NCBI GenBank assembly: GCA_040752695.1
Contig: JBFMGO010000005.1
Coordinates: 1 to 31,621 of the forward strand
Direction of reading: 5' to 3'
Origin: a bacterium
Lineage (GTDB): Bacteria > SZUA-182 > DTGQ01
Length of the DNA stretch: 31,621 nucleotides
A program made the translations under genes and the position numbers. The notes under the pieces were generated by a model. It made no database searches. It saw nothing but the letters and a program-made list of their open reading frames with translations, and was not told the origin of the DNA. Positions 1 through 31,621 of the stretch are shown here, piece by piece. Positions within the stretch are counted from its first letter, which is position 1; each line of letters begins with the position of its first letter.

Positions 1-16
1 ACAAGGGAGGTATAAC

Positions 17-520: not shown

Positions 521-935
521 AAAAAGCCGCCTGCACGTCCGCCAGTACTCAAAAAGATGTCTTTTGGCAGAAGAGGGATTTACCCTTGTAGAGCTCCTCG
601 TTTCACTGGCTATTCTCGCCCTTGCTCTTCGGGGAATTGGAAATATCATTGTAACCGCATCCCGAAGCAATGGCATGTCCCGTAAAATTACTTTAGCCTG
701 TAACCTCTGCCAGGCGAAGATTGAGGCTATCAAGGCACTGGGCTATAGTGCCATAGCCGACAGTCAGGAATGCGGTATTGATGAAAGGGGCGAATCTGGA
801 GGGGGCTTCGACCGTACCGTTACTGCGGTAACCGGCCCTGTGAGTGACACCAAATTGATTACCGTAACCGTCAGTTGGACCGATTATACCGGGCCCCGTC
901 AGGTTTCGGTACAGACCCTGTTTGCAGATTTGTAA
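504..935 (+). CDS. pilV: Type IV minor pilin, PilV-like
   Basis: G|FTLVELLVSLAILALAL prepilin motif, 'A..L.Q.KIE.IK' helix and 'F.RTV.V...K.ITVTVSW' C-terminus. Sits between the fimT-like and pilW-like genes. Confidence 0.8.
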   Translation: MTDGIRKSRLHVRQYSKRCLLAEEGFTLVELLVSLAILALALRGIGNIIVTASRSNGMSRKITLACNLCQAKIEAIKALGYSAIADSQECGIDERGESGGGFDRTVTAVTGPVSDTKLITVTVSWTDYTGPRQVSVQTLFADL

Positions 936-1016
936 TTTCCCTTTAACACGTTTTCCTGTGACCCGTTATTTTTCAGCCCCTTATCCCTTTTTATGATCGT
1001 TCTGCAAGGAGACGAT

Positions 1017-3485: not shown

Positions 3486-3557
3486 TGGAAGAAGGTAACG
3501 AGTAATTCAACGTGACCGAACGCTGAAAAAGCCTGACAAAAGGAGAGAGGATCCGGC

Positions 3558-8344: not shown

Positions 8345-9490
8345 TTATTTCCCGATTGAATAGACACTTATCGTACTGGTATACATTTGAACAACATACA
8401 GCCGGTTTTGCTGATCGATACATAAATCCGCCGGAACCTTGAAGCGAATCTTCTGATTCGACATATCCCCGACAACGCCTAAAAAGTTGCCCTGCTGATC
8501 AAAGACTTGAATTAACCCGATCTTGTCGTAGTTTTCTCCGACAAAGATTCTCTCCTGCTGATCCATACAGATTGACTGCGGCCTGAAGAATTGACCTCTT
8601 TCGATACCCCACTCACCGATGCTGCGGATGTACTCACCCTGGGGGGAGAGAACCTGCACTCTGGTATTGATTACGTCCGTTACGTACATATTGCCAGACT
8701 TATCCAGACATATGGCATAGGGGTAGCGGAAATCTCCATTTTCATAGCCAACCCCCCCGACCTCTTTGAGCAGTTCGAACTTCTTATCGTAGATTAAAAG
8801 CCTGTGGTTATCATTATCGACGGCGACAAGCTGCTGATTCACCTCATCGAAAGCCATATCCGTAGGGTCGGACAACGACCTGTACTTATCTGGAGGGACC
8901 GGGATTTCCGTTACCGGACTTGCGCGATCATCGAATACCTGAATCCGGTGATTTTTTGAATCGGCAACGTAGATGCGATCTTTGGAATCAATCATTAATC
9001 CAAGTGGAGACTTGAATTCTCCACGATCGCTTCCTTTTTTCCCGAACTGAGCCAGATATTTCCCATCATAGGAAAAGAGCACAAGCCGGCCGTTGACTCC
9101 ATCCAGAACCCAGATCCTTTTCTGGGAATCAACAGCCACTGCACTGGGTTGATCAAGAGGCGGTATTACAGCCTCTTTTTTAATATCAAAAAGATGCTTT
9201 ACCTGGATAATCTGAAGAGGAGCCGCCGTCACAGGATTGACCACTGCTGCTGGTTTGTCGGCTGGTGCCGGTGTTCCGCTTGGAGATGCAGATATTCCAT
9301 GAATGGGGGCGACCGGTTGTTCCGCTTTTCCACTTACGGAGACCGGCTGTTCCGGTTTTCCACTCACCGAAGCCGACATTCCCCTCTCAGACCAGAGAAA
9401 AACAAGAGCCGGGCAGAGCAGAATCAAGAAAAGCCACAGCCAAAGGATAGAATCCGTGCCCTTAAAATGGCTTGTATGGTTATTACTCAT
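8345..9490 (-). CDS. NHL-repeat six-bladed beta-propeller protein, exported or N-terminally anchored
   Basis: Repeated NHL motifs (P.AVAVDS...IWVLD..NGR; GEFKSP.G...DS.DRIYVADSKNHRIQVF; GDFRYPY...YVTD..N.RVQV). N-terminal hydrophobic segment followed by a Pro/Ala/Ser linker. Confidence 0.92.
   Translation of the reverse strand: MSNNHTSHFKGTDSILWLWLFLILLCPALVFLWSERGMSASVSGKPEQPVSVSGKAEQPVAPIHGISASPSGTPAPADKPAAVVNPVTAAPLQIIQVKHLFDIKKEAVIPPLDQPSAVAVDSQKRIWVLDGVNGRLVLFSYDGKYLAQFGKKGSDRGEFKSPLGLMIDSKDRIYVADSKNHRIQVFDDRASPVTEIPVPPDKYRSLSDPTDMAFDEVNQQLVAVDNDNHRLLIYDKKFELLKEVGGVGYENGDFRYPYAICLDKSGNMYVTDVINTRVQVLSPQGEYIRSIGEWGIERGQFFRPQSICMDQQERIFVGENYDKIGLIQVFDQQGNFLGVVGDMSNQKIRFKVPADLCIDQQNRLYVVQMYTSTISVYSIGK
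9311..9370 (-). repeat. 30-nt imperfect tandem duplication in the NHL protein linker (SVSGKPEQPV / SVSGKAEQPV)
   Basis: gaccggttgttccgcttttccacttacgga is followed directly by gaccggctgttccggttttccactcaccga. Confidence 0.85.
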
Positions 9491-12630: not shown

Positions 12631-14385
12631 TTATTCCTCCTTTACGCTACCTTGCTCTTGCTTTCCACTCCCTTGATCTTCTTCTATCGTATTTTTGTCT
12701 TTGGGATTCGAAACGCTCTTTAAATATTTTTCAATGATTGCGCTCCTATTGGGGTGACACACAGAACAGAGGCTCTCCTTCGATTCAACGCGTAATTTCG
12801 GTCCCTTGGCACCGTTGTGAGGGTCATGGCAGGTAAAACAGCCGATCTGACCGCTCAGCGTCAGGGGAAATATCTGCATATCCAGGCCATCTCCCATCGA
12901 ACAAATACCTGATGCGGCTTGAGAGCTGTCCTTGAATTTGTTTTCCCAAAACCGCTCGACGAATTTTCCCGTATGCACAACCCCATACGGATGGTTCGTC
13001 TCTTTGTTCGCATGGCAGCCGAGGCAATAATAATGAAGCGAGGCCCTGTATCCGAAAGCGACCTTATCCTCCCCGGCCGGGTCAAGGTCATTCTGAGAAG
13101 GAGTCTCTTGAATGGCTGCGGACTCTGCCTTGCGGGTAATCCATCTGTCGGTTTCGTCTGCACCTTTTTGAACGATTTGCCCATACTTTTTATAATGGCA
13201 TTGTCGGCAGCTCTTATTAACGTCATTAATGCGCAATTTTGGCCCTTTTCGAACATCATGGGGATTGTGACAGGTGGCGCACATGATTTTTCCACTGATG
13301 CTGATGGGAAACATCTTGAACTTTTCCTGCTGAGAAAGCTTATTTCGTTCCGATGGCTTAAGCCCTTCCCATATGGTATGGAGCTGCCGCCCGGTATGGC
13401 TCGCCCCAAAGGGGTGCTTTTCAACGCTGATCGGGTGACAGCCAAGGCAGTAAAACTTAAAAGAAGCCTTAAACTTAAAGGCCAGCCCTGTTGCATTTTC
13501 CTTATTGATATCATGACAAAACAGACACCGGTCTTCCCTGATCTCACCGGCATCCGTCACCTGGTCATGAGGATTGATTTTCTCGTACTGCTCCCTGATA
13601 TGGCAGACCAGGCAGGTATCAATGCGTCTTTGATACGGCCCGCCCCGTAGGAAAAAGGAATTCTTCGTTCTCTCTCCACCCGCACAGTTCATCTTATGAC
13701 AACTGATACAGGTCAGTTTGCCTTTTTTCAAAGGGAATTCCGCAGGAACCTTTACCCCGCGCTCCGTGGATGGAACGATTTCCACCGGGTGGTTATCGGC
13801 TCTGACACGCTTGTTATTATGACAACTCTTGCAGAGCTGAACGGTATTTCCACCTGATTTTAAATACAGTTCTTTGTCCCCTGGCCGCGGCTCCTTTTCG
13901 TGACACAAAAAGCAAAAGACACCGGATTGATGGGGATCGATCGTTTCGGAAAGTGCGCGAAAAGGTTGATAGGCACTTCGCAAAAGGAAGGGATTTTTCT
14001 CTTTATCAGGTACCTGATGGGTAGTATGGCAGCTTGGGCAACTAATTTGATTCTGAAAAAGAGGCAAGGGCAAGTCAGGTATCTGGCGCATCAGGGTCAG
14101 GCTGACTTCCTTTGATGATATTAAAAGACAGCTTTGGGGAAGCTTCTCCTCGTGACATCGAAAACACTTCTGGCTGTAATCCGGCCTCAGGTTTTCACCC
14201 TGTTTCTCTCCCATGGTCGCGCTTGATCCTTCTGGCTTTTCCAGGTGACAATTTCGGCAGTTCACCCTCAATAAATCCTGCGGATTGCCGTGTGGAGAGT
14301 GGGAAGACTGTCCCTGGGCAAACGAAAATCCCCACCAGGCGACAATCGAAAGAACAACCAATAACCAGCATATACGATGAATCAT
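12631..14385 (-). CDS. Exported 14-heme cytochrome c
   Basis: Signal peptide ending SFA|Q. 14 CXXCH counted. The N-terminal 8-heme half is paralogous to 14454..15350, and the C-terminal triheme module is duplicated. Confidence 0.9.
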   Translation of the reverse strand: MIHRICWLLVVLSIVAWWGFSFAQGQSSHSPHGNPQDLLRVNCRNCHLEKPEGSSATMGEKQGENLRPDYSQKCFRCHEEKLPQSCLLISSKEVSLTLMRQIPDLPLPLFQNQISCPSCHTTHQVPDKEKNPFLLRSAYQPFRALSETIDPHQSGVFCFLCHEKEPRPGDKELYLKSGGNTVQLCKSCHNNKRVRADNHPVEIVPSTERGVKVPAEFPLKKGKLTCISCHKMNCAGGERTKNSFFLRGGPYQRRIDTCLVCHIREQYEKINPHDQVTDAGEIREDRCLFCHDINKENATGLAFKFKASFKFYCLGCHPISVEKHPFGASHTGRQLHTIWEGLKPSERNKLSQQEKFKMFPISISGKIMCATCHNPHDVRKGPKLRINDVNKSCRQCHYKKYGQIVQKGADETDRWITRKAESAAIQETPSQNDLDPAGEDKVAFGYRASLHYYCLGCHANKETNHPYGVVHTGKFVERFWENKFKDSSQAASGICSMGDGLDMQIFPLTLSGQIGCFTCHDPHNGAKGPKLRVESKESLCSVCHPNRSAIIEKYLKSVSNPKDKNTIEEDQGSGKQEQGSVKEE

Positions 14386-14453
14386 CTCACACCTTATAAA
14401 CTTATCGTAACCTCATGTTTTATAACCGTTATCGCAGCCTTCTCATCGCAAAC

Positions 14454-15350
14454 CTATATGATATGGCAGTACAGACACTTATTTTTCATGATATGGCCTT
14501 TATCATCAACCTGGATATGAGGATTGACAGCCTGATATCGCTCCTTCATATGGCAGGAGAGGCACACATCGACTCTCTTTTCATAAGGGCCTCCCCGCAG
14601 AAGCTTTTGTTCCGGGTTCCCCCCTTTGCAGGGCATCAGATGGCAGGTGAGACAGGTTATCTTTCCATCACTCAACGGAAAAATCTCGGGGACGTTTACC
14701 CCTTTATCTTTCGAAGGGGCAACCCTGACCGGATGATTGTCAGAACGCGCCTTTTTTCCGTCGTGACACTGGACGCAGATCACTACTTGATCTGCATCGA
14801 ATTTCAATGCAAGATTGTGGGCTCCGGATTTGGCCGGTGTTTCATCATGGCAGAGCCGGCAAAAAACATTTGCCTTATGCGGATTAACCTTTTGAGCCCG
14901 GAACCAGAAGTTAGGATAGAGATTGTTGAGCTTTTTGTCGGCACCTTTTGTGCCCCGGTCATGGAAAAAGTGGCAGCTCCCGCACCAGATAGACCCTGAC
15001 GACAGAAGGGGCAGCCCCACATAGTCCAGTTGAGATTTGAGAATTTGAGTCGCTTTTTCCGTGGACACAAGAGTACAGCTTTGCGGAACCGTGTGACAGG
15101 TGCTGCATCGGGCTTTGCACTTTTCGAACTGAATCGTGTCTGTCCCCTGGTTCTGCCCGGTTGGATCGGAAGAATGACATTCTTTGCAGCTTTGCTGGAA
15201 CGACCCGATATCTTCTTTATGAGGGTTTTTCTCATCGGCCTTCAAAGGGGCAGCACACCAGGCGATTGCCCTGCAAAGAACCCCAAGGAGCACGATCACA
15301 ATTACACCTGACCTGATCGTATGAAGGTGTCTTATTCTCTTACCGCTCAA
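14454..15350 (-). CDS. Exported 8-heme cytochrome c, shorter paralog of the adjacent 14-heme protein
   Basis: 8 CXXCH. TTG start preceded by GAGGAG/AAGGGA. Collinear with the first ~290 aa of 12631..14385. Ends CLYCHII-TAG. Confidence 0.85.
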   Translation of the reverse strand: MSGKRIRHLHTIRSGVIVIVLLGVLCRAIAWCAAPLKADEKNPHKEDIGSFQQSCKECHSSDPTGQNQGTDTIQFEKCKARCSTCHTVPQSCTLVSTEKATQILKSQLDYVGLPLLSSGSIWCGSCHFFHDRGTKGADKKLNNLYPNFWFRAQKVNPHKANVFCRLCHDETPAKSGAHNLALKFDADQVVICVQCHDGKKARSDNHPVRVAPSKDKGVNVPEIFPLSDGKITCLTCHLMPCKGGNPEQKLLRGGPYEKRVDVCLSCHMKERYQAVNPHIQVDDKGHIMKNKCLYCHII

Positions 15351-15451: not shown

Positions 15452-15497
15452 TATTTGTCATACAAATATTATACCCGATTCCCTACTTTCGAATCAA
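15452..15497 (-). promoter_or_regulatory. Putative sigma70 promoter (TTGATT-N18-TATAAT) with a 7-bp inverted repeat over the start site
   Basis: Minus strand TTGATT at 15497-15492 and TATAAT at 15473-15468. Perfect inverted repeat TATTTGT-N3-ACAAATA at 15452-15468. Confidence 0.5.
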
Positions 15498-17057
15498 ATC
15501 AATCCCGTCAATTCCGAATGGTGCTCTGCCAACTCTTATAGATTCAATAAGTTGCTCTTGACGTAAATCGATAACCGACAGGCTGTCTTCCGCGCTGTTA
15601 ATTACATACAAATAGTTCCGGGCGCTGTCGAGGGCAAGTCCACAAGGGCTTTTACCTGTCCGGTACCGGCTTTCCTGAATGCCCGCCGAAGCAGGCATCT
15701 TCTGAGCGGCAGACAGTAAAGGTACCCGAAAGCTGCTGACTGAATTATCTTTCCGGTTGGTGACAAAGAGCCTGCCCCTGTCTTCATCGAGAACGATCTG
15801 GTCAGGACCATACTCCGCCTGGAGTAATGACGATTTTTTCACCGAATATCCGGGATCGTTTCCGGCTTTCCCCTGATTTTCCAGAAGGGTTAGATCGATA
15901 TCGAACAAAAATACCGATGAGGAACCGAAGTTGGCGACAAAGAGCAGGTCGGAAGAAAACCCGTCGCCCGATACCACTATTCCCGCAGGCTCGGACTGCA
16001 AAGGAATCCTGTCCGCCAACCGATGACTCTCAATGCCGATAACATAGATGTCGTGAGAGCCCTGGTTTGTGACATATAACCATTTCCCGCTGGAGCTTAC
16101 TTCAAGATCCACCGGCTGATGTCCGGCATCGAACGTATCGATGGACTTTTTCAAATCCGTATCGATCATGCTGACATTATCGCTGTCCATATTGGCTGTA
16201 AATACATACTTACCATCCGATGTAATGGTTATCCGGGAGGGAGCGATACCCAAAGGCAAATCGATCGCCTCCTCTTCCAGTTCGTTGGTCATGGTATCAA
16301 TGATCGAAACGGAATTGGAGCCCGAATTTGCCACATACGCATAAATGCCCCTTGGATTAACCACGATACCCTTTGGCGCCTTACCGACCTGGATAACCGT
16401 GATGGTAGAATTGGTCAAGCGGTCCAGAACCGATACCGTGTTATCATCCGTGTTGGTTACATAGAGCATCAGGGCTTTGACTCCCGCAGGCTTTCTCCCC
16501 TGGCTCAGGCGGGGAGAGAAGAGAAGCCCTGTATCGCTGCCCTTTTTTTGTGACTTCACTTCAAGATTGACGTAAGCGTTGGTAGTTCTTTTGGGGGTAA
16601 TGAGAAAGGGGACGTCCAAAAAGGTATAGCCTTCTTGAGACTCCAAAAGAATGGTCTCCCCCGATCGGTTAATAGAGGCACCGGTAAAAGAAAGCCCGAT
16701 TTTCTGGTAACTGCCGGTCGGTACCTTCACTTCGATGAAAACCTGTCGCCCATCGGATCCTGCCTCAAGGGGTTGGTTTACAGGCCGCGAAACCAGTGCA
16801 CCATCCGCACCCTCAAGCTGGATATCCTTTACCGTAAAAGAGATTTCTTCTTTCGCCGGACTGCAAAAACGAACATAGAGCCCCAACGAGCCAGTCTGAA
16901 CCTGTTGCGGTCTGTCATGTTCCGAAGCCAGATAGGCACAGCCTGAGAGGAAAAGAAAAAAGGACAGCACGCAGACACACTGCCACACGCAGAGAAAATC
17001 CAGGCTTTTCTCTCCACCTTTGTGCCTGTGAGGTTTTTTGATCTGATTTTGATTCAT
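15483..17057 (-). CDS. Lipoprotein with an N-terminal beta-sandwich (DUF4382-like) and a YVTN/YncE-type beta-propeller
   Basis: Lipobox LSG|C. Repeats LYVTN.DDNTVSVLD, AYVAN.GSNSVSIID, VFTAN.DSDNVSMID, LYVTN, LFVAN, LFVTN and LYVIN. Confidence 0.88.
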   Translation of the reverse strand: MNQNQIKKPHRHKGGEKSLDFLCVWQCVCVLSFFLFLSGCAYLASEHDRPQQVQTGSLGLYVRFCSPAKEEISFTVKDIQLEGADGALVSRPVNQPLEAGSDGRQVFIEVKVPTGSYQKIGLSFTGASINRSGETILLESQEGYTFLDVPFLITPKRTTNAYVNLEVKSQKKGSDTGLLFSPRLSQGRKPAGVKALMLYVTNTDDNTVSVLDRLTNSTITVIQVGKAPKGIVVNPRGIYAYVANSGSNSVSIIDTMTNELEEEAIDLPLGIAPSRITITSDGKYVFTANMDSDNVSMIDTDLKKSIDTFDAGHQPVDLEVSSSGKWLYVTNQGSHDIYVIGIESHRLADRIPLQSEPAGIVVSGDGFSSDLLFVANFGSSSVFLFDIDLTLLENQGKAGNDPGYSVKKSSLLQAEYGPDQIVLDEDRGRLFVTNRKDNSVSSFRVPLLSAAQKMPASAGIQESRYRTGKSPCGLALDSARNYLYVINSAEDSLSVIDLRQEQLIESIRVGRAPFGIDGIDLIRK

Positions 17058-17082
17058 CCCTGCCCCTTCTTAGTCTTTCTGC

Positions 17083-18369
17083 CTATTTCTTCTTGTGACA
17101 CTGTTCACACAGTGCCTGTGAGCCATCCCATCGCAATGCATGCATAAACTTGGTCCCCATAGGATCGTGACACGTCTGGCATGTAATTGGACTCTTCCGG
17201 TCCCTGGGGTCAATAGCCTTTTCTCCTACAGGGTGGCAGGCATTCTTTTGCCTGGCATGGCATTTTGTACATAATGTGAGAATATCTGTTTTATAGAAAT
17301 TGGGCAGTGAAGAGGAATGGGGATCGTGGCAACTGGTGCAGTTTCCCTTCACAACTTCCGGATGCCGGTAATCCCCTGCGTTCTGCTTTAACCGCGCTGC
17401 TATTCGGGGATGGCAGCTTTCGCAGAGGGCTCTGACATCTTTTCGAGTTAAGTTCTTTCGCTCAGAGGCATGGGGATTATGACAATAGGTGCATTGTGTA
17501 TCCCCGGAAGCCATATGAGTTCTTGATGCGCGTTGGAACTTCTCTTTTTCTTTTTGGTGGCAAGTATAACATAATTTTGCTCCATGAGCAACTAATGTAG
17601 ATTTTTTTTCGTTCTGATGACAACTTTTACACTTTTGCTCCTCATACGGAGTGTGGGTAAAATCATAGATCAGCCCTTTCCTGTTGGACGCGTGCGGGCT
17701 ATGACACAGGGTACAGTCGCTGCCTCGGACATCAAATCCCTGATGAAATTCTGTCAGGTTTTTTTGACCGTGACAGCCAAGGCAAAGAGTACGCAGTGGC
17801 TCAATCAGCAGGAAATCCTCTTTCGAAGCATGAGATACATGACAGGTTTGACACTTTCCCTCCTTAACCGGCTCATGCACCGTGCTCGCCGTATACTTTT
17901 CTTTCGAATGACACTGAAAGCAAAGATTCTGCCCCTTCGCTTTCAACTGGGATCGGTAAGGGGATACATGTGCCTCATGGCAGCCAAGACACCCCCTCCC
18001 CTCCTCCCGAAGGGGCCCGTGCACTTTCAGTCCCTGCCATTTTTCTTTTTGTTCACGGTGACAGCGGTAGCAAAGCCCGGCTCCTTCATCGATCAGAAGA
18101 TGATTGAACCGGGCTGTGTGCGGATTATGGCAGCCTGCGCAATTCTCCTGCCTGACGACCCGATGAACATACCCCGAGGCGCATTTTGTTTTCAGGTCCG
18201 GATGGCATTGGAAGCAATCGACACCTGCGCGCGATTCGGCTGATGGAAAAAGTACGAGAAGCAAAAAGAGCGGAAGAACCACTGAGAAAGAAGCGCTCTT
18301 CCCCCTGCACTTTCCCCTCCACTTTTCCAAGGAGCGTCGATTGTTCCTGCACTGATCATTCTGGCACAT
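17083..18369 (-). CDS. Periplasmic 16-heme cytochrome c with paired-CXXCH repeats (~428 aa)
   Basis: 16 CXXCH arranged as H.P...CxxCHxxH.S...LL...LCxxCH units. Start reassigned to ATG 18369, which has AAGGA upstream, a 14-nt overlap with the preceding gene, and a signal peptide ending SRA|. Confidence 0.9.
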   Translation of the reverse strand: MCQNDQCRNNRRSLEKWRGKCRGKSASFSVVLPLFLLLVLFPSAESRAGVDCFQCHPDLKTKCASGYVHRVVRQENCAGCHNPHTARFNHLLIDEGAGLCYRCHREQKEKWQGLKVHGPLREEGRGCLGCHEAHVSPYRSQLKAKGQNLCFQCHSKEKYTASTVHEPVKEGKCQTCHVSHASKEDFLLIEPLRTLCLGCHGQKNLTEFHQGFDVRGSDCTLCHSPHASNRKGLIYDFTHTPYEEQKCKSCHQNEKKSTLVAHGAKLCYTCHQKEKEKFQRASRTHMASGDTQCTYCHNPHASERKNLTRKDVRALCESCHPRIAARLKQNAGDYRHPEVVKGNCTSCHDPHSSSLPNFYKTDILTLCTKCHARQKNACHPVGEKAIDPRDRKSPITCQTCHDPMGTKFMHALRWDGSQALCEQCHKKK

Positions 18370-20506
18370 TATCTTTGGTCCTTCGATGGCAGATATCACA
18401 CTTTTTCGATTGAAACGGCTCATGAACAACCCTTCGAAATAATCCCCCCTCTTTTGAGGAGTGAGGATCATGGCAATCGAGGCAATGGTTCTTGTCCGGC
18501 CTGATATTCCCATGGGCACGAAGAAAAAGCTTCTCGTCCTGCTTATGACATTCAAGACACATCGAATCCACTCCCGCGGCTAAAACAGATGGATGCGAAG
18601 CCCCGTGCCCGCTGTGACAGGTGAGGCACTTGCCTTTCTGTACCGGAGTGTGGACATGGGCATTGGCCTGCCCGATTTTTTCTTCCATGCTCTTATGGCA
18701 TGGAAAGCACAAGCTGCCGGATTGGCTCAGCAACAGGCGGGAAAGCCTGCTTCCATGGGGATGGTGACACGATAGGCATTGAAAGCTCCTGACCGGGCTG
18801 TGTGTGACTGATGCCGGAGATTTGCCACCTGCCGCCAGGTCGCGGCCCAGCGGCTGATGACATTCACCGCTCAGGCACAAAAGGCCACTATTTTGGATAA
18901 GCATATTCTTGCAGTCACTGGCATGGGGGTTGTGGCACTCCATGCACTGGCCGTTTTTGAAGGGTGAATGCAAGGATGCATCTTCAAGCTGTTTTTGCAA
19001 TGGAAGATGGCACGTCCAGCACAATTCCTGTGCCGGAAAAAGCAATAACTTTTCATGATCCCCTTCATGCGCCGTATGACAGCCCAGACAGTTACCGTTT
19101 TGCACCGGGGTATGGGCATTTACTCTTGTATACTGCTTTTCCTCCTTCATGTGGCACTGATAGCACACCTTGGGAATGGGTTCCTTGAGGAGACCTGAAA
19201 CGGTTGAGGCGTGATTGGCATGGCAGGACAGGCATTCTCCCTTTTGAACCGGGCTGTGAATACTGTAAGAGCCCGGCTGGCTCGCTTCACCGGCCTGGCT
19301 GTCCGGGTCGAGGTCTTTATGGTCACCTTCCGGGTATTTCCCCTCCTCTGACATGCCTTCCTTATGACATTGATAACAAAGGCCGGCCTGTCCCCCTCTT
19401 AACGGCCATTTCACCTGTGCGCTGTGGGGATCATGACAGACGGTGCACTGGCCATTTTTCATGGGCTTATGCACGCTCCTTTGCTCTGTTTCCTTTAGCA
19501 CTTGCAGGTGGCACTGGTAGCAGACCCAAGGCTCGCGATACGATAAAAGCCCTTTGGAATCCGAGGCATGCGGGGCATGACAGGCAAGGCACCTGCCCTC
19601 TTGCACGGCCTTATGAGCATCCTGCCCGATCGCCGTACGGTATTTCTCCCCGTCATGACATTGGTAACACAGTTCACCGGTTTTTTCCTTTTTGAGGCGA
19701 AACGGCTCATTCGCATCTTTCGAAAGATGGCAGAAAGAGCATTTTTTTTCCTGCATCGGCTTATGGATTCTGGCTCGCAGCAAGGATTGCGTGTCAGAAG
19801 AATGCGGGTTGTGGCACTGTGAACAGCGCTTTTCTTTCACCGGATACCCCTGATGTGCTGCAACCAGACGATCATCCGTGGTGCGGTGGCAGGTAAGACA
19901 CAGCCGTTTTTCCTCATCTGCCAGAAGCTCCGGTTTATCCGAAGCATGGGGAAGATGGCACAACTGACAGCCCTTTTCCAATGCCTTATGTTTAAAGGGC
20001 CGGTTAAACGGTTCCTGATCCTGGGCAGGGTCATGACAGCTAAAGCACAATTCCTGCCCTCTTTGCCTGGTCAAATTCGCATTATCAGAAGAGTGAGGAT
20101 CATGGCACACCGTGCATTTTTCCACCGGCTTATGTACCGAAAAAGCTCCCCCCTGGGCAGCGTCTTGTTTTGGCGTCTTGCTTTGAGACACCTGGGCTTG
20201 TATCTTCGGATGACAGCGAAAACAAAGCTCCGGCTTTCCCTGTTCCCAAAGGTGCAAAGTGCCGACAAAGCCATGAGGTTCATGACATCGGCTGCAATCC
20301 TTTTCGCTGACCGGTTTATGCACCGTGAGCTTTTGCAGATAGTCTTGTGCTTTTTGCGTATGGCATTCGACGCAGCGGCTGCTGGCAAATCTGGTCCTTT
20401 TCCTCTGAAGCAGCACACAGGAAGAGAATATCAGGCTACAAAGAAAGAGGATAAGAACCATGAAAGAGGGGCTGATTCCTTCCTTTTGCGTGGGTCTTTT
20501 TATCAT
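18356..20506 (-). CDS. 26-heme cytochrome c lipoprotein (25 CXXCH plus one CX4CH)
   Basis: Lipobox-like FSS|C. Paired-CXXCH repeats throughout. CLSGECH occupies a slot where a CXXCH is expected. Confidence 0.92.
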   Translation of the reverse strand: MIKRPTQKEGISPSFMVLILFLCSLIFSSCVLLQRKRTRFASSRCVECHTQKAQDYLQKLTVHKPVSEKDCSRCHEPHGFVGTLHLWEQGKPELCFRCHPKIQAQVSQSKTPKQDAAQGGAFSVHKPVEKCTVCHDPHSSDNANLTRQRGQELCFSCHDPAQDQEPFNRPFKHKALEKGCQLCHLPHASDKPELLADEEKRLCLTCHRTTDDRLVAAHQGYPVKEKRCSQCHNPHSSDTQSLLRARIHKPMQEKKCSFCHLSKDANEPFRLKKEKTGELCYQCHDGEKYRTAIGQDAHKAVQEGRCLACHAPHASDSKGLLSYREPWVCYQCHLQVLKETEQRSVHKPMKNGQCTVCHDPHSAQVKWPLRGGQAGLCYQCHKEGMSEEGKYPEGDHKDLDPDSQAGEASQPGSYSIHSPVQKGECLSCHANHASTVSGLLKEPIPKVCYQCHMKEEKQYTRVNAHTPVQNGNCLGCHTAHEGDHEKLLLFPAQELCWTCHLPLQKQLEDASLHSPFKNGQCMECHNPHASDCKNMLIQNSGLLCLSGECHQPLGRDLAAGGKSPASVTHSPVRSFQCLSCHHPHGSRLSRLLLSQSGSLCFPCHKSMEEKIGQANAHVHTPVQKGKCLTCHSGHGASHPSVLAAGVDSMCLECHKQDEKLFLRAHGNIRPDKNHCLDCHDPHSSKEGGLFRRVVHEPFQSKKCDICHRRTKDNVPE

Positions 20507-20554
20507 AATGAACCTTGCTTCAAACAGTGAAAGGTGGCTGATAAAACGTCACTA

Positions 20555-22036
20555 TCAAGGCTGATGCCTGGAGGTCAATCCTTGCAGGTATTTTTCATCG
20601 ATAACGATCGTGGATGCTGCCCGGAGGCGCCGGAGCCAGTCCTGGACGAGGGAATGCAGCTTTTGTGCGGCAAGCTCTTTTTCAATGTGCATCTTCACCT
20701 TTTCAAGGGGGATCTTATCACCCCCCTTTTTCTCCTTCACTCTGAAAATCGAATATCCGCTCCCGGTCTTAAAAGGTGGGGTGATCTGCCCCTCTTTCAG
20801 GCCCTGAGCCACGAGCAGGGATCTTAATTCCGGCTGCATCCTTTGGAGCGACACCCATTTTCCTCCTGTCTTTCGATTCACTTCGGGTTGACCTGCCCCC
20901 TGACTGTCAAAAGTCCCGGCTGCCCGGTGCTTGGCCATAAAGGAGAAATCCCCTCCCTGAAGCAATTCCCGGTAATCACGCCAGGCTGAATTGGGGTCTT
21001 TTTCGGCGATTTCTTCCAGATAGACCATAGTCTCATGCAGCAGGAGTGTTGAATTTTCCCGGTAGTAGCGGTCAATCTCTTCGCTCCTTATCTCCACCTT
21101 CGGGGCAAGCACTTTTTGCAGGAAGGTTTGATAGAGCAATTCATCCTCAAAATGCTTAAGCTGCTCTCTGACCTTCTTTCCTGCACCATACCCCTTACGA
21201 TGCGCTTCCTGCCTGAGCAGCCAGTATTCGATCAGGCGTTCGAGTCCTTTTTCGGCATATGTGGATATCTCCTCATCCGGGGCATCTTCTTCTTTGGCCT
21301 CTTTTGTCCTTACGCTTTCCTTTCCAGCGCTTTGCTTTCCAGCCTTCATTCTTGCCCTGATTTCCTCATAGAGGTCCTGTCCCTCGATTTCTTCTCCATT
21401 GACACGGGCGATGGGACCGGAAAGGGTACCAAGGCTCATCGGATCGGACAGATCGAAAATCTCTATGTCGGACCTTGTTTTCAAATCCTCGATATAGGCC
21501 CGGCTCAAAGCATCTTCTTTCCTCATCCTCACTTTTTGCAATTCAAGCCAGTTCATTTCCGATATCCGGGGAGGCCGCCGCCCGTCCTGCCCCTTAAAGT
21601 AAGCGTCTACATCCTTCTGTGTCAGGGATTGGGATGGCTTGACGATTTTTTCCTCTCTCAACGCAGCAAGGCACATCTGTTCGTTTTTATCAGACAATGC
21701 CCTTTGAAACCCTTCCTGCTGATCCAACCCCATTCGCCTCGCTTCCTGAATAATCAGCCTGCGGTCTATCATATCCTGTAAAAAAGAGGCAATATCCAGC
21801 TCTTTTGCCTGAGCCGTAGGTCTATTGTGGAGATGAAACTGCCGCAGTTCCTCCACGAAATCAGCCTGAGTTATGGGAAAGTCATTGACGCGTGCAATAA
21901 CAATACTATTCGGTCGAAGGGAGGATACACAGCCACTCGTTACGATGAGAACACAGAAAGAAAGAAATGCTATTCGATAATAAAAGGCAGAATGCATTCG
22001 ATGGGGCATGCTGACACGGTACTTTTTACAATACAA
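20555..22036 (-). CDS. SurA/PrsA-like foldase lipoprotein with a parvulin-type PPIase domain
   Basis: Lipobox-like TSG|C. Two SurA-N-like segments (IARVNDFPIT...MIDRRLIIQEARRMGLD; IARVNGEEI...LIEYWLLRQEA). Parvulin-like 'GGDFSFMAK...LKEGQITPPFKTGSGYSIFRV'. Exact start uncertain. Confidence 0.88.
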   Translation of the reverse strand: MYCKKYRVSMPHRMHSAFYYRIAFLSFCVLIVTSGCVSSLRPNSIVIARVNDFPITQADFVEELRQFHLHNRPTAQAKELDIASFLQDMIDRRLIIQEARRMGLDQQEGFQRALSDKNEQMCLAALREEKIVKPSQSLTQKDVDAYFKGQDGRRPPRISEMNWLELQKVRMRKEDALSRAYIEDLKTRSDIEIFDLSDPMSLGTLSGPIARVNGEEIEGQDLYEEIRARMKAGKQSAGKESVRTKEAKEEDAPDEEISTYAEKGLERLIEYWLLRQEAHRKGYGAGKKVREQLKHFEDELLYQTFLQKVLAPKVEIRSEEIDRYYRENSTLLLHETMVYLEEIAEKDPNSAWRDYRELLQGGDFSFMAKHRAAGTFDSQGAGQPEVNRKTGGKWVSLQRMQPELRSLLVAQGLKEGQITPPFKTGSGYSIFRVKEKKGGDKIPLEKVKMHIEKELAAQKLHSLVQDWLRRLRAASTIVIDEKYLQGLTSRHQP

Positions 22037-22042
22037 TATGGG

Positions 22043-22612
22043 TTATAGGGTAAAATCTTCAAATATCTTTTTTAACCTGGCGCTCTCGGTTTGCAGTTTT
22101 CTCACCATATGTTCCGAGCAGGCTCCAGGCAGGTCTTTTTGAATCATGGCATCAAGATAGTGGGATGACTCTCTGGCTGCCAAAAGCCGCTCTCGCAAGC
22201 TTGCGCCCATCTGGTTGATCTCTCTGGCCAGATCCTGTAATTCATCGTTCGATCTCAGGCGAAAATCCTCGTGCAGGTTTCCCAGAGCGATGCTCTGGAT
22301 TCTGCGCTCCAGGCGGTAGAGAGGGCCCGCCAGTTTTTGCGGATAAAACAGGGCAACCGTTAAGGCCAGAAAGCCGCCAATGCCTATGGCCAGTAGCGTC
22401 CACGGGATGAGAACCTGTCTCATGTTATGCAGTTGAACATGAAACTGCTTGTAAGTCGTATCGATTTGACGATTACTGTAATGGTAAAAGATTCCTCCGC
22501 TGATCAAAGAGGAGATGACCACAATGAGCAGAATCCATCCTAAAATCCGCAGTTGAAACTGCCTTTTTATACCGAGGTTAAACCATTTTCTCTTTTGGTG
22601 GGAATGCTCCAT
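22043..22612 (-). CDS. Small two-TM membrane protein with a HAMP domain and no output domain (~189 aa)
   Basis: Two TM helices, then HAMP 'AGPLYRLERRIQSIALGNL...LRSNDELQDLAREINQM' and a short coiled coil. Start reassigned to ATG 22612 (SD GAGGAGAGG). Confidence 0.82.
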   Translation of the reverse strand: MEHSHQKRKWFNLGIKRQFQLRILGWILLIVVISSLISGGIFYHYSNRQIDTTYKQFHVQLHNMRQVLIPWTLLAIGIGGFLALTVALFYPQKLAGPLYRLERRIQSIALGNLHEDFRLRSNDELQDLAREINQMGASLRERLLAARESSHYLDAMIQKDLPGACSEHMVRKLQTESARLKKIFEDFTL

Positions 22613-22634
22613 GTCCCTCTCCTCACGCTCACTC

Positions 22635-23480
22635 TTATTTCGGGTTATATATTTCTTTTGGATGGCAGGCCAGGCACAGTTCCTCGCTGACTGCCCTTCG
22701 CCCCAGGTAACTCTTGCTGCTCGCATGGGGGAAGTGGCAGGTAATGCAGAGAAGGAGCCCGTTTTTCCCAGTCGGCAAATCAGCCGTTCTCATCTTTTCC
22801 CTGACTTTCTGGGAAGGCACGACATTCACAGGATGGGACACTCCCAGAGTCTCTTTGAGATGACATTGATAACAGGCGTTGATCCCGATCTCTGCACTCA
22901 GTATCGAATTTTCTGCATGAGCGGTTTTGGCCTCTGCCATCGGATCTTTCGGTTCTTTCCATGAGTTTTGCGTTTCACTCCACTCTAACATGCAATAATC
23001 GGCTGTCTCCGTTTTCCAGGTAACGATGGCGGATGAGGGATCCTGAGTATTCGAGGTGAGCTCTATCTGTGAAAAGCCGCCTGAATCGGGAAATGACATT
23101 ACCGCGCCTCTTATGTCTATATTCCTGGGGGAAAAAGAATAAACCGAAGATACATGCGCTTTATTTTCGGCCACAAGAGTTTTCAAACGAAAATAAAACG
23201 TGTGGTCAAAAGCGAGGGATGGAAAAGTAAATGAATGATCCTGTACTGCCTTGAACTTAAACTGAAACTGATGACACTGATAACATTTTCCCATCCCAAA
23301 AGGACTGTGTACACATGCTGGTAAGTTATCGAAGGCTTTCTCATGGCAAGGCAGGCATTCATTCTTTTTGGAAGAGAATTGCGGAGCCTGGCTGAAAGCA
23401 AGACGGATGAAAGGTGCCATGCAGGCTGCCAGAGCGAGCAGCAGGACACCGAGTTTTCTTTTCTTTGGGTAGTTTGGCAC
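22635..23480 (-). CDS. Pentaheme cytochrome c with hemes split 2+3 around a beta-rich FN3-like insert
   Basis: CLPCH and CYQCH, then ~130 heme-free residues including SAIVTWKTE...MLEW, then CYQCH, CITCH and CLACH. N-terminal signal peptide and GTG start. Confidence 0.85.
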   Translation of the reverse strand: MPNYPKKRKLGVLLLALAACMAPFIRLAFSQAPQFSSKKNECLPCHEKAFDNLPACVHSPFGMGKCYQCHQFQFKFKAVQDHSFTFPSLAFDHTFYFRLKTLVAENKAHVSSVYSFSPRNIDIRGAVMSFPDSGGFSQIELTSNTQDPSSAIVTWKTETADYCMLEWSETQNSWKEPKDPMAEAKTAHAENSILSAEIGINACYQCHLKETLGVSHPVNVVPSQKVREKMRTADLPTGKNGLLLCITCHFPHASSKSYLGRRAVSEELCLACHPKEIYNPK

Positions 23481-23579
23481 GATAGTAACCCGATCCGTAA
23501 TCTGTTTTTTCTCTTTTCAAATGACACTTCAGGTCCTGCCACAAAACCCTTCACGTTTCTCTTTAAATTTACGAAACCT

Positions 23580-24164
23580 TCAAATCCTGCCGCCGAGTTC
23601 CTTCAAAAAATCCCTCGCAACGTTGACGGTGAGCTGAGAGCAAAATCTAATTTCGCCGATATCGAATACTTTCACTGCGTCCCGCCCTGTTCTCGTCTCC
23701 CGCCCGAACCACACAGTCTGTCCGTTTTCACAATCGACGAGCCTGGCAGAAATTTCCACAACCGCAGGCTCTTTCCCGTCCGGGCTCCATTCCCGGTACT
23801 GATTAATGGTTCCGAGAATGACCCCCTCTACTGAAAACCTGTCCACCAACTCCTTTACTACCTCTTTGGTAATCGTTTCGGTGGATTGAACATTATGCTG
23901 CCATAAAAACTCCTGAACATCTCCATATTTTACAACTGAAAATCGCCTCTCATTCGCAATTTCGCTAATAAAGAGATTTGTTACGATAATTTCCGCATCC
24001 AATCGCTCGCTCAGGTTATAAAATGGCAGTACCGCAATCCGTTTGATACGCTGCACTCTTTCCATTTGGAGTACAGCGCTGGCTTTCCCTTTCGGCGATC
24101 CCGTACAGCCGCCCGCTGCTACGATCAGGAAAAGAACAAGGAGGATTCCCCCTATTCGGGTCAT
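23580..24164 (-). CDS. CsgG/PelC/GNA1162-fold lipoprotein
   Basis: Lipobox AGG|C after MTRIGGILLVLFLIVA. 'RIAVLPFYNLS...GVILGTINQY...VEISARLVD..NGQTVW'. Start reassigned to 24164; ATG near 24269 is an alternative. Confidence 0.8.
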   Translation of the reverse strand: MTRIGGILLVLFLIVAAGGCTGSPKGKASAVLQMERVQRIKRIAVLPFYNLSERLDAEIIVTNLFISEIANERRFSVVKYGDVQEFLWQHNVQSTETITKEVVKELVDRFSVEGVILGTINQYREWSPDGKEPAVVEISARLVDCENGQTVWFGRETRTGRDAVKVFDIGEIRFCSQLTVNVARDFLKELGGRI

Positions 24165-24336
24165 CCGGCATCCGTTTCCATTGTCTCCCCTCCAGTCGAA
24201 TCCTCTTTCACTGTCTTCTCTGCCCTCGAATTTTCCGCGATGACCGCTGACGGATTTCCCGTTCATCATCTTCGATAATAACTGACTGTTCGATAGCAAC
24301 TGACTGATGGTCTTCGTTGATGAATAGATCAATTTT

Positions 24337-24906
24337 TTATCTTTCTTTACTTTTCGGCAAAGACCGGAGTAAATCTTCGGCCACACTGTGCATTAATGAT
24401 GACCAGTCTATGTGGATGTCTCTTTGCAGGAGATAGATCTCCTGCTGCCCAACGGCGCAGAAATATTTCGACCACAGAACCGGTGCCGACCCTTTGGTTG
24501 AAATCAGATTGCAGAAAAATGATACCTGTGGCAGCGGCTCTTGTCGAAAGCTATCGATCATTCCCAGTAAAAGAGTCTTGACTCTCAAACGCTTGCCGAT
24601 TTCATTAATCTGTTCAGTGGTGAGAAATCCCGTATGTCTCACCTTAAGTTCAGTCAGGATTTTCTCCACTTGATGTGCAGGGACAATGGAATACTCTTCT
24701 TCAAGCGATTTCGCGATGTCCTCCATTACCTGCTCGCTCGCGCCGAATTTCCCGCTCAGGTTCTCGAAGGGCAGGACAGCAATAATCCCCTCGTTCGCTT
24801 CTCTAGCCGGTGAAGCGGTCGCAACAGGCCGAGTGCCTGGGAAAAGACTTGCCAGGATAATAAAAACGATCAGTAAGGAATGCTTCATACCCTTTTGACT
24901 ACTCAT
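24337..24906 (-). CDS. CsgG/PelC/TolB-N-fold exported protein without a lipobox
   Basis: Signal peptide. 'IAVLPFENLSG...EIGKRLRVKTLLLGMI...VLWS'. Paralogous to both flanking genes. Confidence 0.78.
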   Translation of the reverse strand: MSSQKGMKHSLLIVFIILASLFPGTRPVATASPAREANEGIIAVLPFENLSGKFGASEQVMEDIAKSLEEEYSIVPAHQVEKILTELKVRHTGFLTTEQINEIGKRLRVKTLLLGMIDSFRQEPLPQVSFFCNLISTKGSAPVLWSKYFCAVGQQEIYLLQRDIHIDWSSLMHSVAEDLLRSLPKSKER

Positions 24907-25489
24907 AAACGAGAGTTTTTACTACGAAATTGGTTGCTTTGGCGGCCACATTACTCAATGAGTCCTCACCAATACCAAATATCGTTGGTAATACCCGACG
25001 GCCCATTGTTGTATGACTGACTGACCAGATGATATTCCCTGTCTTTGCATCGAGCATTCGCATGGTGATCGCGATTTCCGGAAAAGATCCTGACATGGTT
25101 CGGTTCATGGAATATTCCTCGACCGTCCCCAGGATCAGACCCTGAACGCCGAGCATCTGGCCGACAACTTTGGCCACATCTCCGGTTACCGCTTCCTGGG
25201 AGGCAACCCCTTGAGTTTCCAGTGCTTTTAAAACCTCCCCCAACTCCGGCACATCGATTACATTCGTTGACAGAAGTGAAGTCACGAATACATCGCGCAC
25301 CTTTTTGTCAGCAAACCGGTCTGAAGTAAGATTTTCGAAAGGAAGTACTGCAACCCGTTTAATGAAACCAAAATTGGTGTTCGGATTAATATAAACCTTT
25401 GGTTTAACCCCACATCCAGCGATACAAAGAATGAAAACTACGACACTGGTGATAATTGAACGGCCCCTTGGCACATTTTTCACAGACAC
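24899..25489 (-). CDS. CsgG/PelC/GNA1162-fold lipoprotein
   Basis: Lipobox IAG|C. 'RVAVLPFENLT...VGQMLGVQGLILGTVEEY...MRMLDAKTGNIIWS'. GTG start with AAGGAGG. Confidence 0.85.
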   Translation of the reverse strand: MSVKNVPRGRSIITSVVVFILCIAGCGVKPKVYINPNTNFGFIKRVAVLPFENLTSDRFADKKVRDVFVTSLLSTNVIDVPELGEVLKALETQGVASQEAVTGDVAKVVGQMLGVQGLILGTVEEYSMNRTMSGSFPEIAITMRMLDAKTGNIIWSVSHTTMGRRVLPTIFGIGEDSLSNVAAKATNFVVKTLVYE

Positions 25490-25508
25490 TGCCTATGCCC
25501 TCCTTACA

Positions 25509-27149
25509 TTAAGTTTTCAGGGTGAATCGGAAAGAGACCACCTGATCGTCTGACGGATACGTATATTTAAATCTGAACTTCAAGGTCTTGGTAATATTGA
25601 AATTCATTTCGCTCGAAAAATACTTTTCTTCGTTTGTGTCGGAAGATTGGTACTGGGCCTCAAGTCGCAACTTGGGTACAGGAACCCAGCCAACCCGGTA
25701 GCTGTAGGTCACCGTGTGCGTATCACCATAGGTAAGTTTGTTATCGAAGGTTAAGAAAAGTTGATCCGCCGGTCTGTAGGTGATAAGGTGCCAGATCTCA
25801 CCATCGAAGGTATCGACCGTGGTTCGCTCCCCTTCCTGATCTTTTTGCTCGATGCTTATCCAGTCGTTTTCATTCCGGAAATAATACTTCAAATCTTGCC
25901 GTAAATCAAAGCTGGCATCAAATTTAATATCTTTTTCCCATTTTTCATCATGATCATTATAATCCTTGGCATTGATCAGTTCAAAATCAGTACGGATCTC
26001 GACTCCATGGTATATTTCCGTCGAGCCTTTCAAGAGAGCGGAGTTCATCCGGTAATCAGGCTCTCCATTTATCTCGTTCAGGGAGCTGCTCAAAAGGAGC
26101 GATGTCTTCAAGGGAGGCATCGGAAGAGCCAGAAATAAGCCCGGAATTTCAGGCTCCAGCCTCAGTCCATATGTCAATACGCTGTTACGTATATCATCCT
26201 GTGAGTCCCAATGGTTATCATGGCTTGCCTCTAAGGTCGTTTTCAGATACGTAAGGGGGAGAAACTCTGTTTTTATGGAATTCCCTACGCTTCTTTCGCG
26301 GTCATGCTCCGACATTTTCTGAATCTCTCCCAAAAACAAATTATAATACACTGCCGTATCATGACCCGGCAAGACATGAAACCTCAGGTTCGCTTTTTGC
26401 TCCAGTGACCGGTAGGTATTGTTGGCTTCCTCATCCTGTTTTTCATTGTGTGATAATTCGTAATCGGAATTCACCTGCAGCCGGGAATCGAAAGCGGAAA
26501 ACTGATAATTTATCTGTCCTCTATTGTTAAGGTCATGATTATCATAATCCACGGTATCTCCTGTGTCATCGCTGGTCACTTCTCTTTTTTCGATGGCAAA
26601 GCTGTGGCTTAAAACAAAAATTCCCATCGCCAGACGGTAATCATCTCTCAGGATCAGTCTTTTTTCCCTGCCGCTGTCCTCTTTTTCATCGAGATCTTTA
26701 TCCTCGGTCTGATACTGGACCGTAATTTTGGGCAGGTAGAAGGGTTTCCAGATAAATGTACTGTAGCCTCGAGCCAGATCATAATTGAGATCCTGTTCGC
26801 GGATGCTGTCTTTACTATATCCTGAATCCAGCCTCAGAACCTGGTTTCCAAGATGAAGGGCCACAGATGGCAGATTCTGTACCCGGTTCTTCGTATCCTC
26901 TTCCTTTTCAGATCTGAATTGAATCTTGAATTGGAGGTCATAGAGGGGACGTACGCTCTTTTCCAGGATCACATCGTAGATTTGCGTAAACCGGTACTCG
27001 GACGTTTCCTCTGTTTCCGGACGCTTCTCATAGAGATAGTCTACCCCTAATCTAATCAACTGGCAATAGCATGGGCTGACTAAAAAGAAAACAGCTATCA
27101 CGATTATCACGGGCACTATGTTTTTTCTTTTACTGACAAATCTCCCCAA
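25509..27149 (-). CDS. Putative outer-membrane beta-barrel protein
   Basis: Signal peptide. Many amphipathic Tyr/Phe-rich strands alternating with acidic loops. C-terminal strand VVSFRFTLKT. No CXXCH. Confidence 0.72.
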   Translation of the reverse strand: MGRFVSKRKNIVPVIIVIAVFFLVSPCYCQLIRLGVDYLYEKRPETEETSEYRFTQIYDVILEKSVRPLYDLQFKIQFRSEKEEDTKNRVQNLPSVALHLGNQVLRLDSGYSKDSIREQDLNYDLARGYSTFIWKPFYLPKITVQYQTEDKDLDEKEDSGREKRLILRDDYRLAMGIFVLSHSFAIEKREVTSDDTGDTVDYDNHDLNNRGQINYQFSAFDSRLQVNSDYELSHNEKQDEEANNTYRSLEQKANLRFHVLPGHDTAVYYNLFLGEIQKMSEHDRERSVGNSIKTEFLPLTYLKTTLEASHDNHWDSQDDIRNSVLTYGLRLEPEIPGLFLALPMPPLKTSLLLSSSLNEINGEPDYRMNSALLKGSTEIYHGVEIRTDFELINAKDYNDHDEKWEKDIKFDASFDLRQDLKYYFRNENDWISIEQKDQEGERTTVDTFDGEIWHLITYRPADQLFLTFDNKLTYGDTHTVTYSYRVGWVPVPKLRLEAQYQSSDTNEEKYFSSEMNFNITKTLKFRFKYTYPSDDQVVSFRFTLKT

Positions 27150-31007: not shown

Positions 31008-31621
31008 TTAAGGAGGCGAGGGAGGCGCTATACCAAAGAATTTTACATCACAAAAGAATCTTCCCAGAGGGCCGGGAGTTATTTTCACTGCCTTAATGGT
31101 AAGGTAGCCTCCTGCGATGAAATCAAACTCTGGACTGATATGACTATCTGATGTAAAGGTATTGTCCACTTCCCACGTAACCGTTGGAAGCACTGTCTTA
31201 TCATCCGGATTATTATGAATCCAGGCATCTACCCGGCTTCTACCGCCGCCAGTATCGCCGCCAATGACCTGAATCCGGGAAACCCCATAGTGTGCATCCG
31301 GGTCGGCAGCCAGTTGGAAAGTAACTTCTGCCTCCCGGTATCCGAAAAGAGTCCAGCAGGTGGTATTCGGATCATTATCGATCGAATTTGCAGCATCCCT
31401 GCCAACTGAAAATGTGTAAACCTTTGCCGGGCTGTACCAGTCCGCCACAGGATTAAAGGATCCTTCCAATAAAACCGACCCTGTCAGCGGATTTCCTGCC
31501 TGATCAAGAACTGCGTCCTTCCCAAGAGTGATGAAGTCGCCAACCGCAATCGTGGAAAAAGATGTATCACTGTCAAAGGTTATGGTTAAGGTATCGTGTA
31601 CGGGTGCATTCCACTCAGCCT
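31008..31621 (-). CDS. 5'-truncated extracellular protein ending in Ig-like and discoidin/F5-8C-like domains
   Basis: Manual translation shows the frame is open to the window edge (...DTLTITFD...VLDQAGNPL...). 'AANSIDNDPNTTCW' is discoidin-like. Confidence 0.65.
   Translation of the reverse strand, partial: AEWNAPVHDTLTITFDSDTSFSTIAVGDFITLGKDAVLDQAGNPLTGSVLLEGSFNPVADWYSPAKVYTFSVGRDAANSIDNDPNTTCWTLFGYREAEVTFQLAADPDAHYGVSRIQVIGGDTGGGRSRVDAWIHNNPDDKTVLPTVTWEVDNTFTSDSHISPEFDFIAGGYLTIKAVKITPGPLGRFFCDVKFFGIAPPSPP

Follow-up and report, generated by a model that had tools for sequence, protein, structure and literature searches.

A probable rearranged counterpart of the osc/oet gene block, linked to an OmcS-family cytochrome gene, in an uncultured bacterial lineage

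The window analysed in this study is a stretch of 31,621 nucleotides of bacterial DNA, corresponding to positions 1-31621 of contig C5 of genome G000, a 6.05-Mb assembly of 96.6% completeness (in the following, C denotes a contig and L a fetched locus). Its subject is a module of ten open reading frames (ORFs) which, according to the ORF listing of the window, follow each other head to tail on the minus strand from position 27149 down to 15483 (Table 1). Encoded are, in this order, an outer-membrane barrel, three proteins of the CsgG/PelC fold (lipo1, lipo2 and lipo3), a pentaheme cytochrome, a HAMP protein, a peptidyl-prolyl isomerase (PPIase), a 26-heme and a 16-heme cytochrome and a beta-propeller. 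The first-pass annotation had described this module as an osc-like machinery for the secretion and assembly of cytochrome nanowires with no omcS in the window. Its inventory holds: all ten genes lie on the minus strand where it had placed them, the heme counts are indeed 26 (25 CXXCH plus one CX4CH) and 16, and the pentaheme cytochrome carries its five CXXCH motifs as two plus three around an insert of ~135 amino acids (aa). As read from the sequences, lipo1, lipo3, the PPIase, the 26-heme protein and the propeller possess lipoboxes, and plain signal peptides were found for lipo2, the barrel and the 16-heme protein. The module sits within a same-strand cluster of ~39 kb (C5:4667-43478).

Table 1. 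Genes of the module and features of the surrounding cluster. Positions are those of the window unless a contig is named.
Feature	Coordinates	Strand	Remarks
Outer-membrane beta-barrel, 546 aa	25509..27149	-	OscE-position counterpart by hhalign and AlphaFold2 (AF2) model
PelC-fold lipoprotein 1 (lipo1)	24899..25489	-	OscF-position type; lipobox IAGC
PelC-fold paralogue 2 (lipo2)	24337..24906	-	Matches N-terminal half of OscG-position protein; signal peptide, no conserved lipobox Cys
PelC-fold lipoprotein 3 (lipo3)	23580..24164	-	Matches C-terminal half of OscG-position protein; ORF listed to 24386, likely start Met at 24164
Pentaheme cytochrome	22635..23480	-	Five CXXCH, 2+3 around insert; extra compared with reference block
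Two-transmembrane HAMP protein, no output domain	22043..22612	-	Pfam HAMP; ORF listed to 22726
SurA_N + parvulin PPIase	20555..22036	-	Lipobox TSGC; OscH position
26-heme lipoprotein cytochrome, 716 aa	18356..20506	-	OscI type
16-heme cytochrome, predicted periplasmic	17083..18423	-	OscJ type; ORF listed to 18555
YVTN beta-propeller lipoprotein	15483..17057	-	OscD type; downstream of 16-heme gene
Big_1/Invasin_D3/fn3 surface protein, 1203 aa	27289..30900	-	Directly upstream of barrel; Pfam
C-terminal piece of giant ~2,980-aa 24-heme protein	31008..31619	-	Continues past window end
8-heme + 14-heme pair	12631..15350	-	Downstream of propeller; 14454-15350 with 8 sites, 12631-14385 with 14 sites
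28-heme protein	4667-8332		28 CXXCH
OmcS-family hexaheme, 437 aa	C5:41093-42406	-	Outside window; six putative heme sites

Shen et al. are said to have described osc in 2025 as the OmcS-filament biogenesis and secretion machine of Geobacter sulfurreducens. According to a paper citing that work, omcS is GSU2504, the OmcS-like oscC is GSU2501, oscI is GSU2495 and oscJ is GSU2494, while OscH is assigned to folding, OscE/F/G to secretion and OscD to morphology (PMC13194489). A second source gives GSU2495 as a 26-heme protein and states that the eight-gene block GSU2500-2493 always accompanies a hexaheme of the GSU2501 type (10.1101/2025.11.06.686851). A search with a six-sequence alignment of the 26-heme protein returned loci of Desulfuromonadales metagenome-assembled genomes (MAGs) and of one MAG titled Geobacteraceae; no record of Geobacter sulfurreducens was among the loci returned. 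Within the family of the Geobacteraceae-titled MAG, the 26-heme query found 10 of 41 genomes at E<=1e-25 and none of the 41 at E<=1e-60. In four of those ten genomes an open frame of 665-678 aa is followed by one of ~428 aa, and 20 kb were fetched from each (loci L066-L069). All four loci begin with a hexaheme of 436-478 aa, and the one at L067:1812-3122 aligns over its full length to the OmcS chain 6ef8_A (E 3.2e-160). The reference order is as follows: OmcS hexaheme, 4-heme protein, second OmcS-like hexaheme, YVTN propeller (467-552 aa), 757-770 aa protein, ~200 aa lipoprotein, 431-445 aa protein, PPIase (591-615 aa), 26-heme protein, 16-heme protein, NHL propeller and third OmcS-like hexaheme.

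Compared with this order, six to seven window genes match the osc eight-gene block on sequence grounds, the PPIase by its position only. The barrel has no match in Pfam or NCBIfam and is rare: a search of 1.84 billion representatives yielded only 15 relatives at E<=1e-3. In the reference loci, phmmer found no match to it. Kinship to the OscE-position proteins of 694-770 aa became visible only by profile comparison (hhalign 97.8%, E 6.7e-13, 480 columns); the window barrel is ~220 aa shorter, while the reference proteins carry an insertion of ~220 aa. In the AF2 model, 28 antiparallel strands follow a signal helix at moderate confidence (mean predicted local distance difference test, pLDDT, 66.6). 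Foldseek matched this model to large outer-membrane barrels only, the best E-value being that of BtuB (1.3e-7) and the best TM-score that of MtrB (6r2q_B, TMq 0.52).

The three PelC-fold proteins, each of ~190 aa, are paralogues. Lipo1 and lipo3 gave Pfam matches of the LpoB/GNA1162/CsgG-like kind (lipo3 as GNA1162-like with 27.5 bits, above the cut-off). Lipo2 had no Pfam match, and hhalign revealed it to be paralogous to both lipo1 (98.6%, E 1.4e-15) and lipo3 (99.4%, E 3.6e-21). The lipo1 model (pLDDT 79.9) is closest to PelC: Foldseek placed 9h80_A from the PelBC complex at the top (E 6.7e-11). TMt values of 0.68-0.81 were obtained for 5t0z, which is PelC of Geobacter metallireducens, and for the PelC dodecamers 5t10 and 5t11; GNA1162, FlgT, CsgG and LpoB scored lower. 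Residues G25 and C26 of lipo1 are conserved in 18 sequences and G19 and C20 of lipo3 are invariant in its alignment; the lipo2 alignment holds no invariant Cys. Lipo1 is the reciprocal best match of a 198-aa reference gene (phmmer, E 6.4e-27), whereas lipo2 and lipo3 share one counterpart, a 431-aa reference protein, to which they align at residues 24-153 (independent E-value, iE, 2.4e-6) and 274-420 (iE 1.9e-7), respectively. What are two genes in the window, one of them without a lipobox, is therefore a single fused gene at the OscG position, which suggests that both parts act jointly. A complex prediction for all three paralogues lends weak support to such an assembly, with a score of 0.57 against 0.02 for the best control, contact agreement between runs of at least 82% and partner pLDDT of at least 80. 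For comparison, 116 of 157 solved complexes attained the 0.57 mark, as did 2 of 215 mismatches, but only 18 of those 157, and both mismatches, lay at scores of 0.60 or lower. Away from the cluster, beside an NHL propeller, the genome encodes one more PelC-fold paralogue, the fourth, which has 240 aa and scores 73 bits to lipo1 (G000:C47:6572-8640, plus strand).

The two large cytochromes are clear homologues of their reference counterparts (E 2.1e-121 for the 26-heme and E 8e-65 for the 16-heme protein), and the CX4CH site of the former is kept in six of six relatives. Among the best 120 database matches of this protein, exactly 26 sites were counted in 48 and 42 sites in 62. The latter proteins, from Zixibacteria, Latescibacterota, Krumholzibacteria, GN15 and others, are ~1060 aa long, the size of a fusion of the 26-heme and 16-heme proteins, which suggests that the two form one continuous chain. 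The propeller has Pfam matches of the Lactonase/YNCE type and TIGR02276 repeats. The YVTN gene at the OscD position matches nothing else in G000, and the match is reciprocal (E 4.5e-37). However, the propeller follows the 16-heme gene in the window and precedes the barrel gene in the reference loci. The PPIase consists of SurA_N and Rotamase_2 domains (Pfam) and its gene directly precedes the 26-heme gene, an arrangement shared by all reference loci. A second cluster of a PPIase and giant cytochromes is present elsewhere in the genome (G000:C4:73766-88970, minus strand); it encodes a PPIase of 569 aa, two large cytochromes (1432 aa with 26 CXXCH and 1201 aa with 21 CXXCH), an 8-heme protein and a paralogue of the 1203-aa Big_1 protein.

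In contrast to the reference block, the pentaheme and HAMP genes are inserted between lipo3 and the PPIase gene. The HAMP domain was recognized by Pfam (E 4.4e-8). The pentaheme cytochrome, presumably periplasmic, is present in seven of nine relatives' loci, in two of them (G004 and G010) as a form of 161-162 aa without the insert, and absent from G006 and G009; the HAMP gene always adjoins the pentaheme gene. The Desulfuromonadales locus L011 also closes with a pentaheme homologue paired with a HAMP gene (L011:18431-20184), and pairs of a HAMP protein and a small cytochrome occur in the Chlorobiaceae locus L025. Recurring beside osc-type clusters in distant lineages, the two genes may encode a redox-sensing pair.

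Literally taken, it is correct that the window lacks omcS, since none of its ORFs gave a strong match to OmcS-like queries. But with a cluster of ~39 kb, little can be concluded from a 31-kb window in which this gene is missing. An OmcS-family hexaheme gene is indeed found on the same strand, 9.5 kb past the window end and, counted from the barrel gene, 13.9 kb upstream; the genome holds no second strong match. A scan of all G000 ORFs found the motif C..CH[TS]MH a single time, in the 437-aa ORF of this gene. The encoded protein matches OmcS itself (6ef8_A, E 6.8e-9), with CSECHTMHNS aligned to CEGCHTMHNS and the C-terminal heme region aligned too, and it matches 11 of 11 OmcS-like proteins of Desulfuromonadales clusters (E 1e-27 to 1e-50). 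A profile built from the latter finds the G000 gene at E 2.7e-123, and its sole other match below 1e-5 in G000 is the neighbouring giant 24-heme protein (E 8.5e-12), all further profile matches being weaker. For an OmcS-like protein of L011, the PDB search gave no match. Five CXXCH motifs are accompanied by a CX5CH (CAGVSGCH) at the place of the third OmcS site, a form (C[AS]GxxGCH) common to 9 of the 11 Desulfuromonadales proteins; the protein would have six heme sites if CAGVSGCH binds heme. In three of four reference loci it scores slightly higher to the paralogue at the GSU2501 position than to OmcS. Its residue H63 aligns to residue 16 of the 6ef8 chain, and the His of CxxCHxMH is presumably the one that ligates a heme of the next OmcS subunit. 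Inter-subunit His ligation of heme is a described property of OmcS (PMC9473688).

The arrangement is conserved beyond G000. Nine loci were retrieved from relatives at the level of genus, family and order, and as far as their contigs reach, the run of Big_1 protein, barrel, three PelC-fold proteins, PPIase, 26-heme, 16-heme, YVTN, 8-heme and 14-heme genes is kept in all of them. A gene order that recurs in 9/9 loci is not due to chance. The OmcS-like gene was detected in 11 of 21 genomes including G000 (5/5, 4/6 and 1/1 in the three families of the order) and in 0 of 9 genomes outside the order. Half of the ten relatives having one (G002, G004, G008, G009 and G010) carry it on the contig of the module. 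G010 also has a single open frame of 1617 aa (G010:C98:26855-30244, minus strand) in which an OmcS-like unit is repeated in tandem at least three times (E 6e-40, 1.5e-38 and 4.8e-24 to the OmcS-like protein of G000); its product may be a covalently concatenated OmcS-type protein.

Two further systems described in the literature resemble the module. The first-pass annotation had named a core of PPIase, 26-heme, 16-heme and beta-propeller genes from sulfate-reducing partners of anaerobic methanotrophic archaea (ANME), and this core has been published, its propeller being six-bladed (Skennerton 2017, PMC5539420). The window shares with it the adjacent PPIase, 26-heme and 16-heme genes in the same order. 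However, the resemblance ends at the propeller, which here is of the OscD-like YVTN/7-bladed-lactonase type and not a six-bladed NHL protein. The hosts appear to differ as well: no dsrA above the family cut-off was found in G000, so its lineage is probably not a sulfate reducer. Murali 2023 describes the oet products, OetABI, as a porin-cytochrome conduit to which OmcS-like filaments deliver electrons, with OetA as periplasmic cytochrome, OetI as porin and OetB as extracellular lipoprotein cytochrome; omcS-like genes near oet hold positions analogous to omcS and omcT of Geobacter (PMC10553843). Likened by these descriptions, the window has the same make-up of periplasmic cytochrome, lipoprotein cytochrome and barrel with an OmcS-like gene nearby.

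Based on these results, the region 15483-27149 is probably a rearranged counterpart of the osc/oet eight-gene block, working as an export-and-assembly machine with the OmcS-like hexaheme as its cargo. The cytochromes would be exported by Sec and matured in the periplasm, where a lipid-anchored, SurA-like PPIase would hold or fold them. The 28-strand barrel, with an assembly of the three PelC-fold paralogues beneath it on the periplasmic side, would then act as a PelBC-like export gate. At this gate the soluble 16-heme and the lipoprotein 26-heme cytochrome could form one long heme chain, while the YVTN propeller may act on the product at the surface. The product served would most likely be the OmcS-family hexaheme, polymerising outside the cell. 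In this scheme, localisation, ring formation, secretion and the identity of the cargo are inferred, while the data show homology, gene order, folds, heme-site counts and conserved linkage. The comparison with PelBC (9h80; PelC 5t0z, 5t10 and 5t11) is one of architecture and does not imply family membership: lipo1 is a PelC-like lipoprotein encoded beside an outer-membrane barrel, but three distinct paralogues are present here instead of one PelC, Pfam detected no TPR in the 28-strand barrel while the PelB-type barrel has TPR, and the presumed cargo is a protein and not a polysaccharide.

Several observations weigh against this interpretation. The letters OscD-K were given to genes by counting along the gene order, and no NHL gene (OscK) follows the 16-heme gene here. 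The barrel model is only moderately confident, and its nearest fold by TM-score, MtrB, is a cytochrome sheath and not a secretion pore. As to the PPIase, the reference protein at the OscH position gave 70, 47 and 38 bits to three other PPIases of G000 and 42 bits to that of the window. A maximum-likelihood tree of 18 PPIases joins the module PPIases with those of Desulfuromonadales clusters, and the Geobacter-type ones with the G000 paralogues; at both splits the support is only 81/87, and the branches are long. Since the window PPIase is not the best match and tree support is low, its equivalence to the OscH-position gene is one of position. The reference loci contain more than one OmcS-like hexaheme, while here there is a single one, its third site being CX5CH, at a distance of 13.9 kb. 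Genes for an NHL propeller and for two giant surface proteins, the ~2,980-aa 24-heme protein and the 1203-aa adhesin-like protein, separate it from the module. In G001, G003, G005, G007 and G011 the OmcS-like gene is on another contig, in assemblies that are fragmented. A scan of C5:1-46000 for sigma-54 promoter motifs gave no site on the cluster strand, and scans for sigma-70 promoters and terminators gave no usable operon limits; co-transcription of the OmcS-like gene and the module is hypothetical.

The same genes might be read as a conduit of the Oet kind, in which the barrel sheathes the heme chain, with the 16-heme protein towards the periplasm and the 26-heme protein on the outer face, so that electrons cross the outer membrane and nothing is secreted through it; the PelC-fold proteins and the PPIase would only build or stabilise it. 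We regard this as possible but doubtful. The composition of the window (a 16-heme cytochrome with signal peptide, a 26-heme protein with lipobox and a barrel) matches that of OetA, OetB and OetI with their OmcS-like neighbours, the barrel model has its best TM-score with MtrB of the Mtr complex, and the 42-heme fusions indicate that the two cytochromes form one chain. However, the equation of OetA, OetB and OetI with 16-heme protein, 26-heme protein and barrel is drawn from text, not from sequence, and PelC-fold ring proteins belong to an export machine, PelBC; we know of no such proteins in MtrCAB-type conduits. Moreover, papers citing Shen et al. 2025 assign to OscEFG roles whose loss affects secretion (PMC13194489). 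Conduit and export are compatible with each other. It is even conceivable, if rather unlikely, that the assembly machine is at the same time an electrical socket, with the chain of 16 plus 26 hemes running from the periplasm through the PelC-fold ring and the barrel to the base of an OmcS-type filament, gate and conduit being one structure and the pentaheme/HAMP pair reporting the redox state of the chain. If true, this would reconcile the osc and oet readings.

A different cargo was proposed by the first-pass annotation, namely the 28-heme concatemer or the 8/14-heme pair rather than OmcS, and it had itself named a canonical omcS just outside the window as the finding that would remove this idea. 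Given the OmcS-family gene in the same cluster, the argument for another cargo from the lack of omcS fails, and we consider it improbable that these proteins are exported instead of, or besides, the OmcS type. In favour of such a cargo, the 8/14-heme pair directly follows the propeller in seven of nine relatives' loci, the other two contigs ending before that point, and it was not seen in the reference loci, which makes it a lineage-specific companion. However, by sequence none of the 8-, 14- and 28-heme proteins matched a filament-forming cytochrome in the PDB: the 14-heme protein matched 6r2q_A (E 5.4e-6), a chain which we take to be periplasmic MtrA, the 28-heme protein matched NrfB (E 0.0011), and the 8-heme protein had no match. 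The 28-heme gene furthermore belongs to a cassette of its own (transmembrane cytochrome, cytochrome b, 4-heme, NHL and 28-heme proteins), which is also found in loci L035 and L038, where the module is missing. Export and assembly of the OmcS-like hexaheme ranks first, a pure conduit second, and an alternative cargo low.

While this type of cluster has already been published, its host lineage and its rearrangements are new: the osc/oet cytochrome-filament cluster is extended to an uncultured lineage that probably lives without sulfate respiration. The natural variation among such clusters (a split or fused OscG, separate 26-heme and 16-heme proteins or a 42-heme fusion, and the changing position of the propeller) points to parts that act together. 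The same variation allows the block to be tested as an export gate, a conduit or both.

Besides the module, the neighbouring genes show features of their own. Directly before the barrel, the 1203-aa Big_1 protein is kept in 9/9 relatives' loci. The window end is followed by a run of ~100 N, and a single ORF of a relative matches both sides of it; thus the piece at 31008-31619 joins the giant protein, which comprises 24 CXXCH and an F5/8 type C domain. NHL propellers are encoded at 8345-9490 and to either side of the OmcS-like gene, and their mutual similarity is generic. Both ends of the cluster carry parts of type II secretion systems or type IV pili. At one end, window positions 2-4601 (plus strand) encode a GspH-like protein, N-methyl pseudopilins, of which one has 830 aa and contains Ig domains, and PilX_N; beyond the other, GspC with a PDZ domain is encoded at L047:18199-19128 (plus strand), equal to C5:49199-50128. 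Genes for a PAS histidine kinase and a sigma-54-dependent response regulator diverge from the head of the cluster (L047:12834-15995, plus strand, equal to C5:43834-46995).

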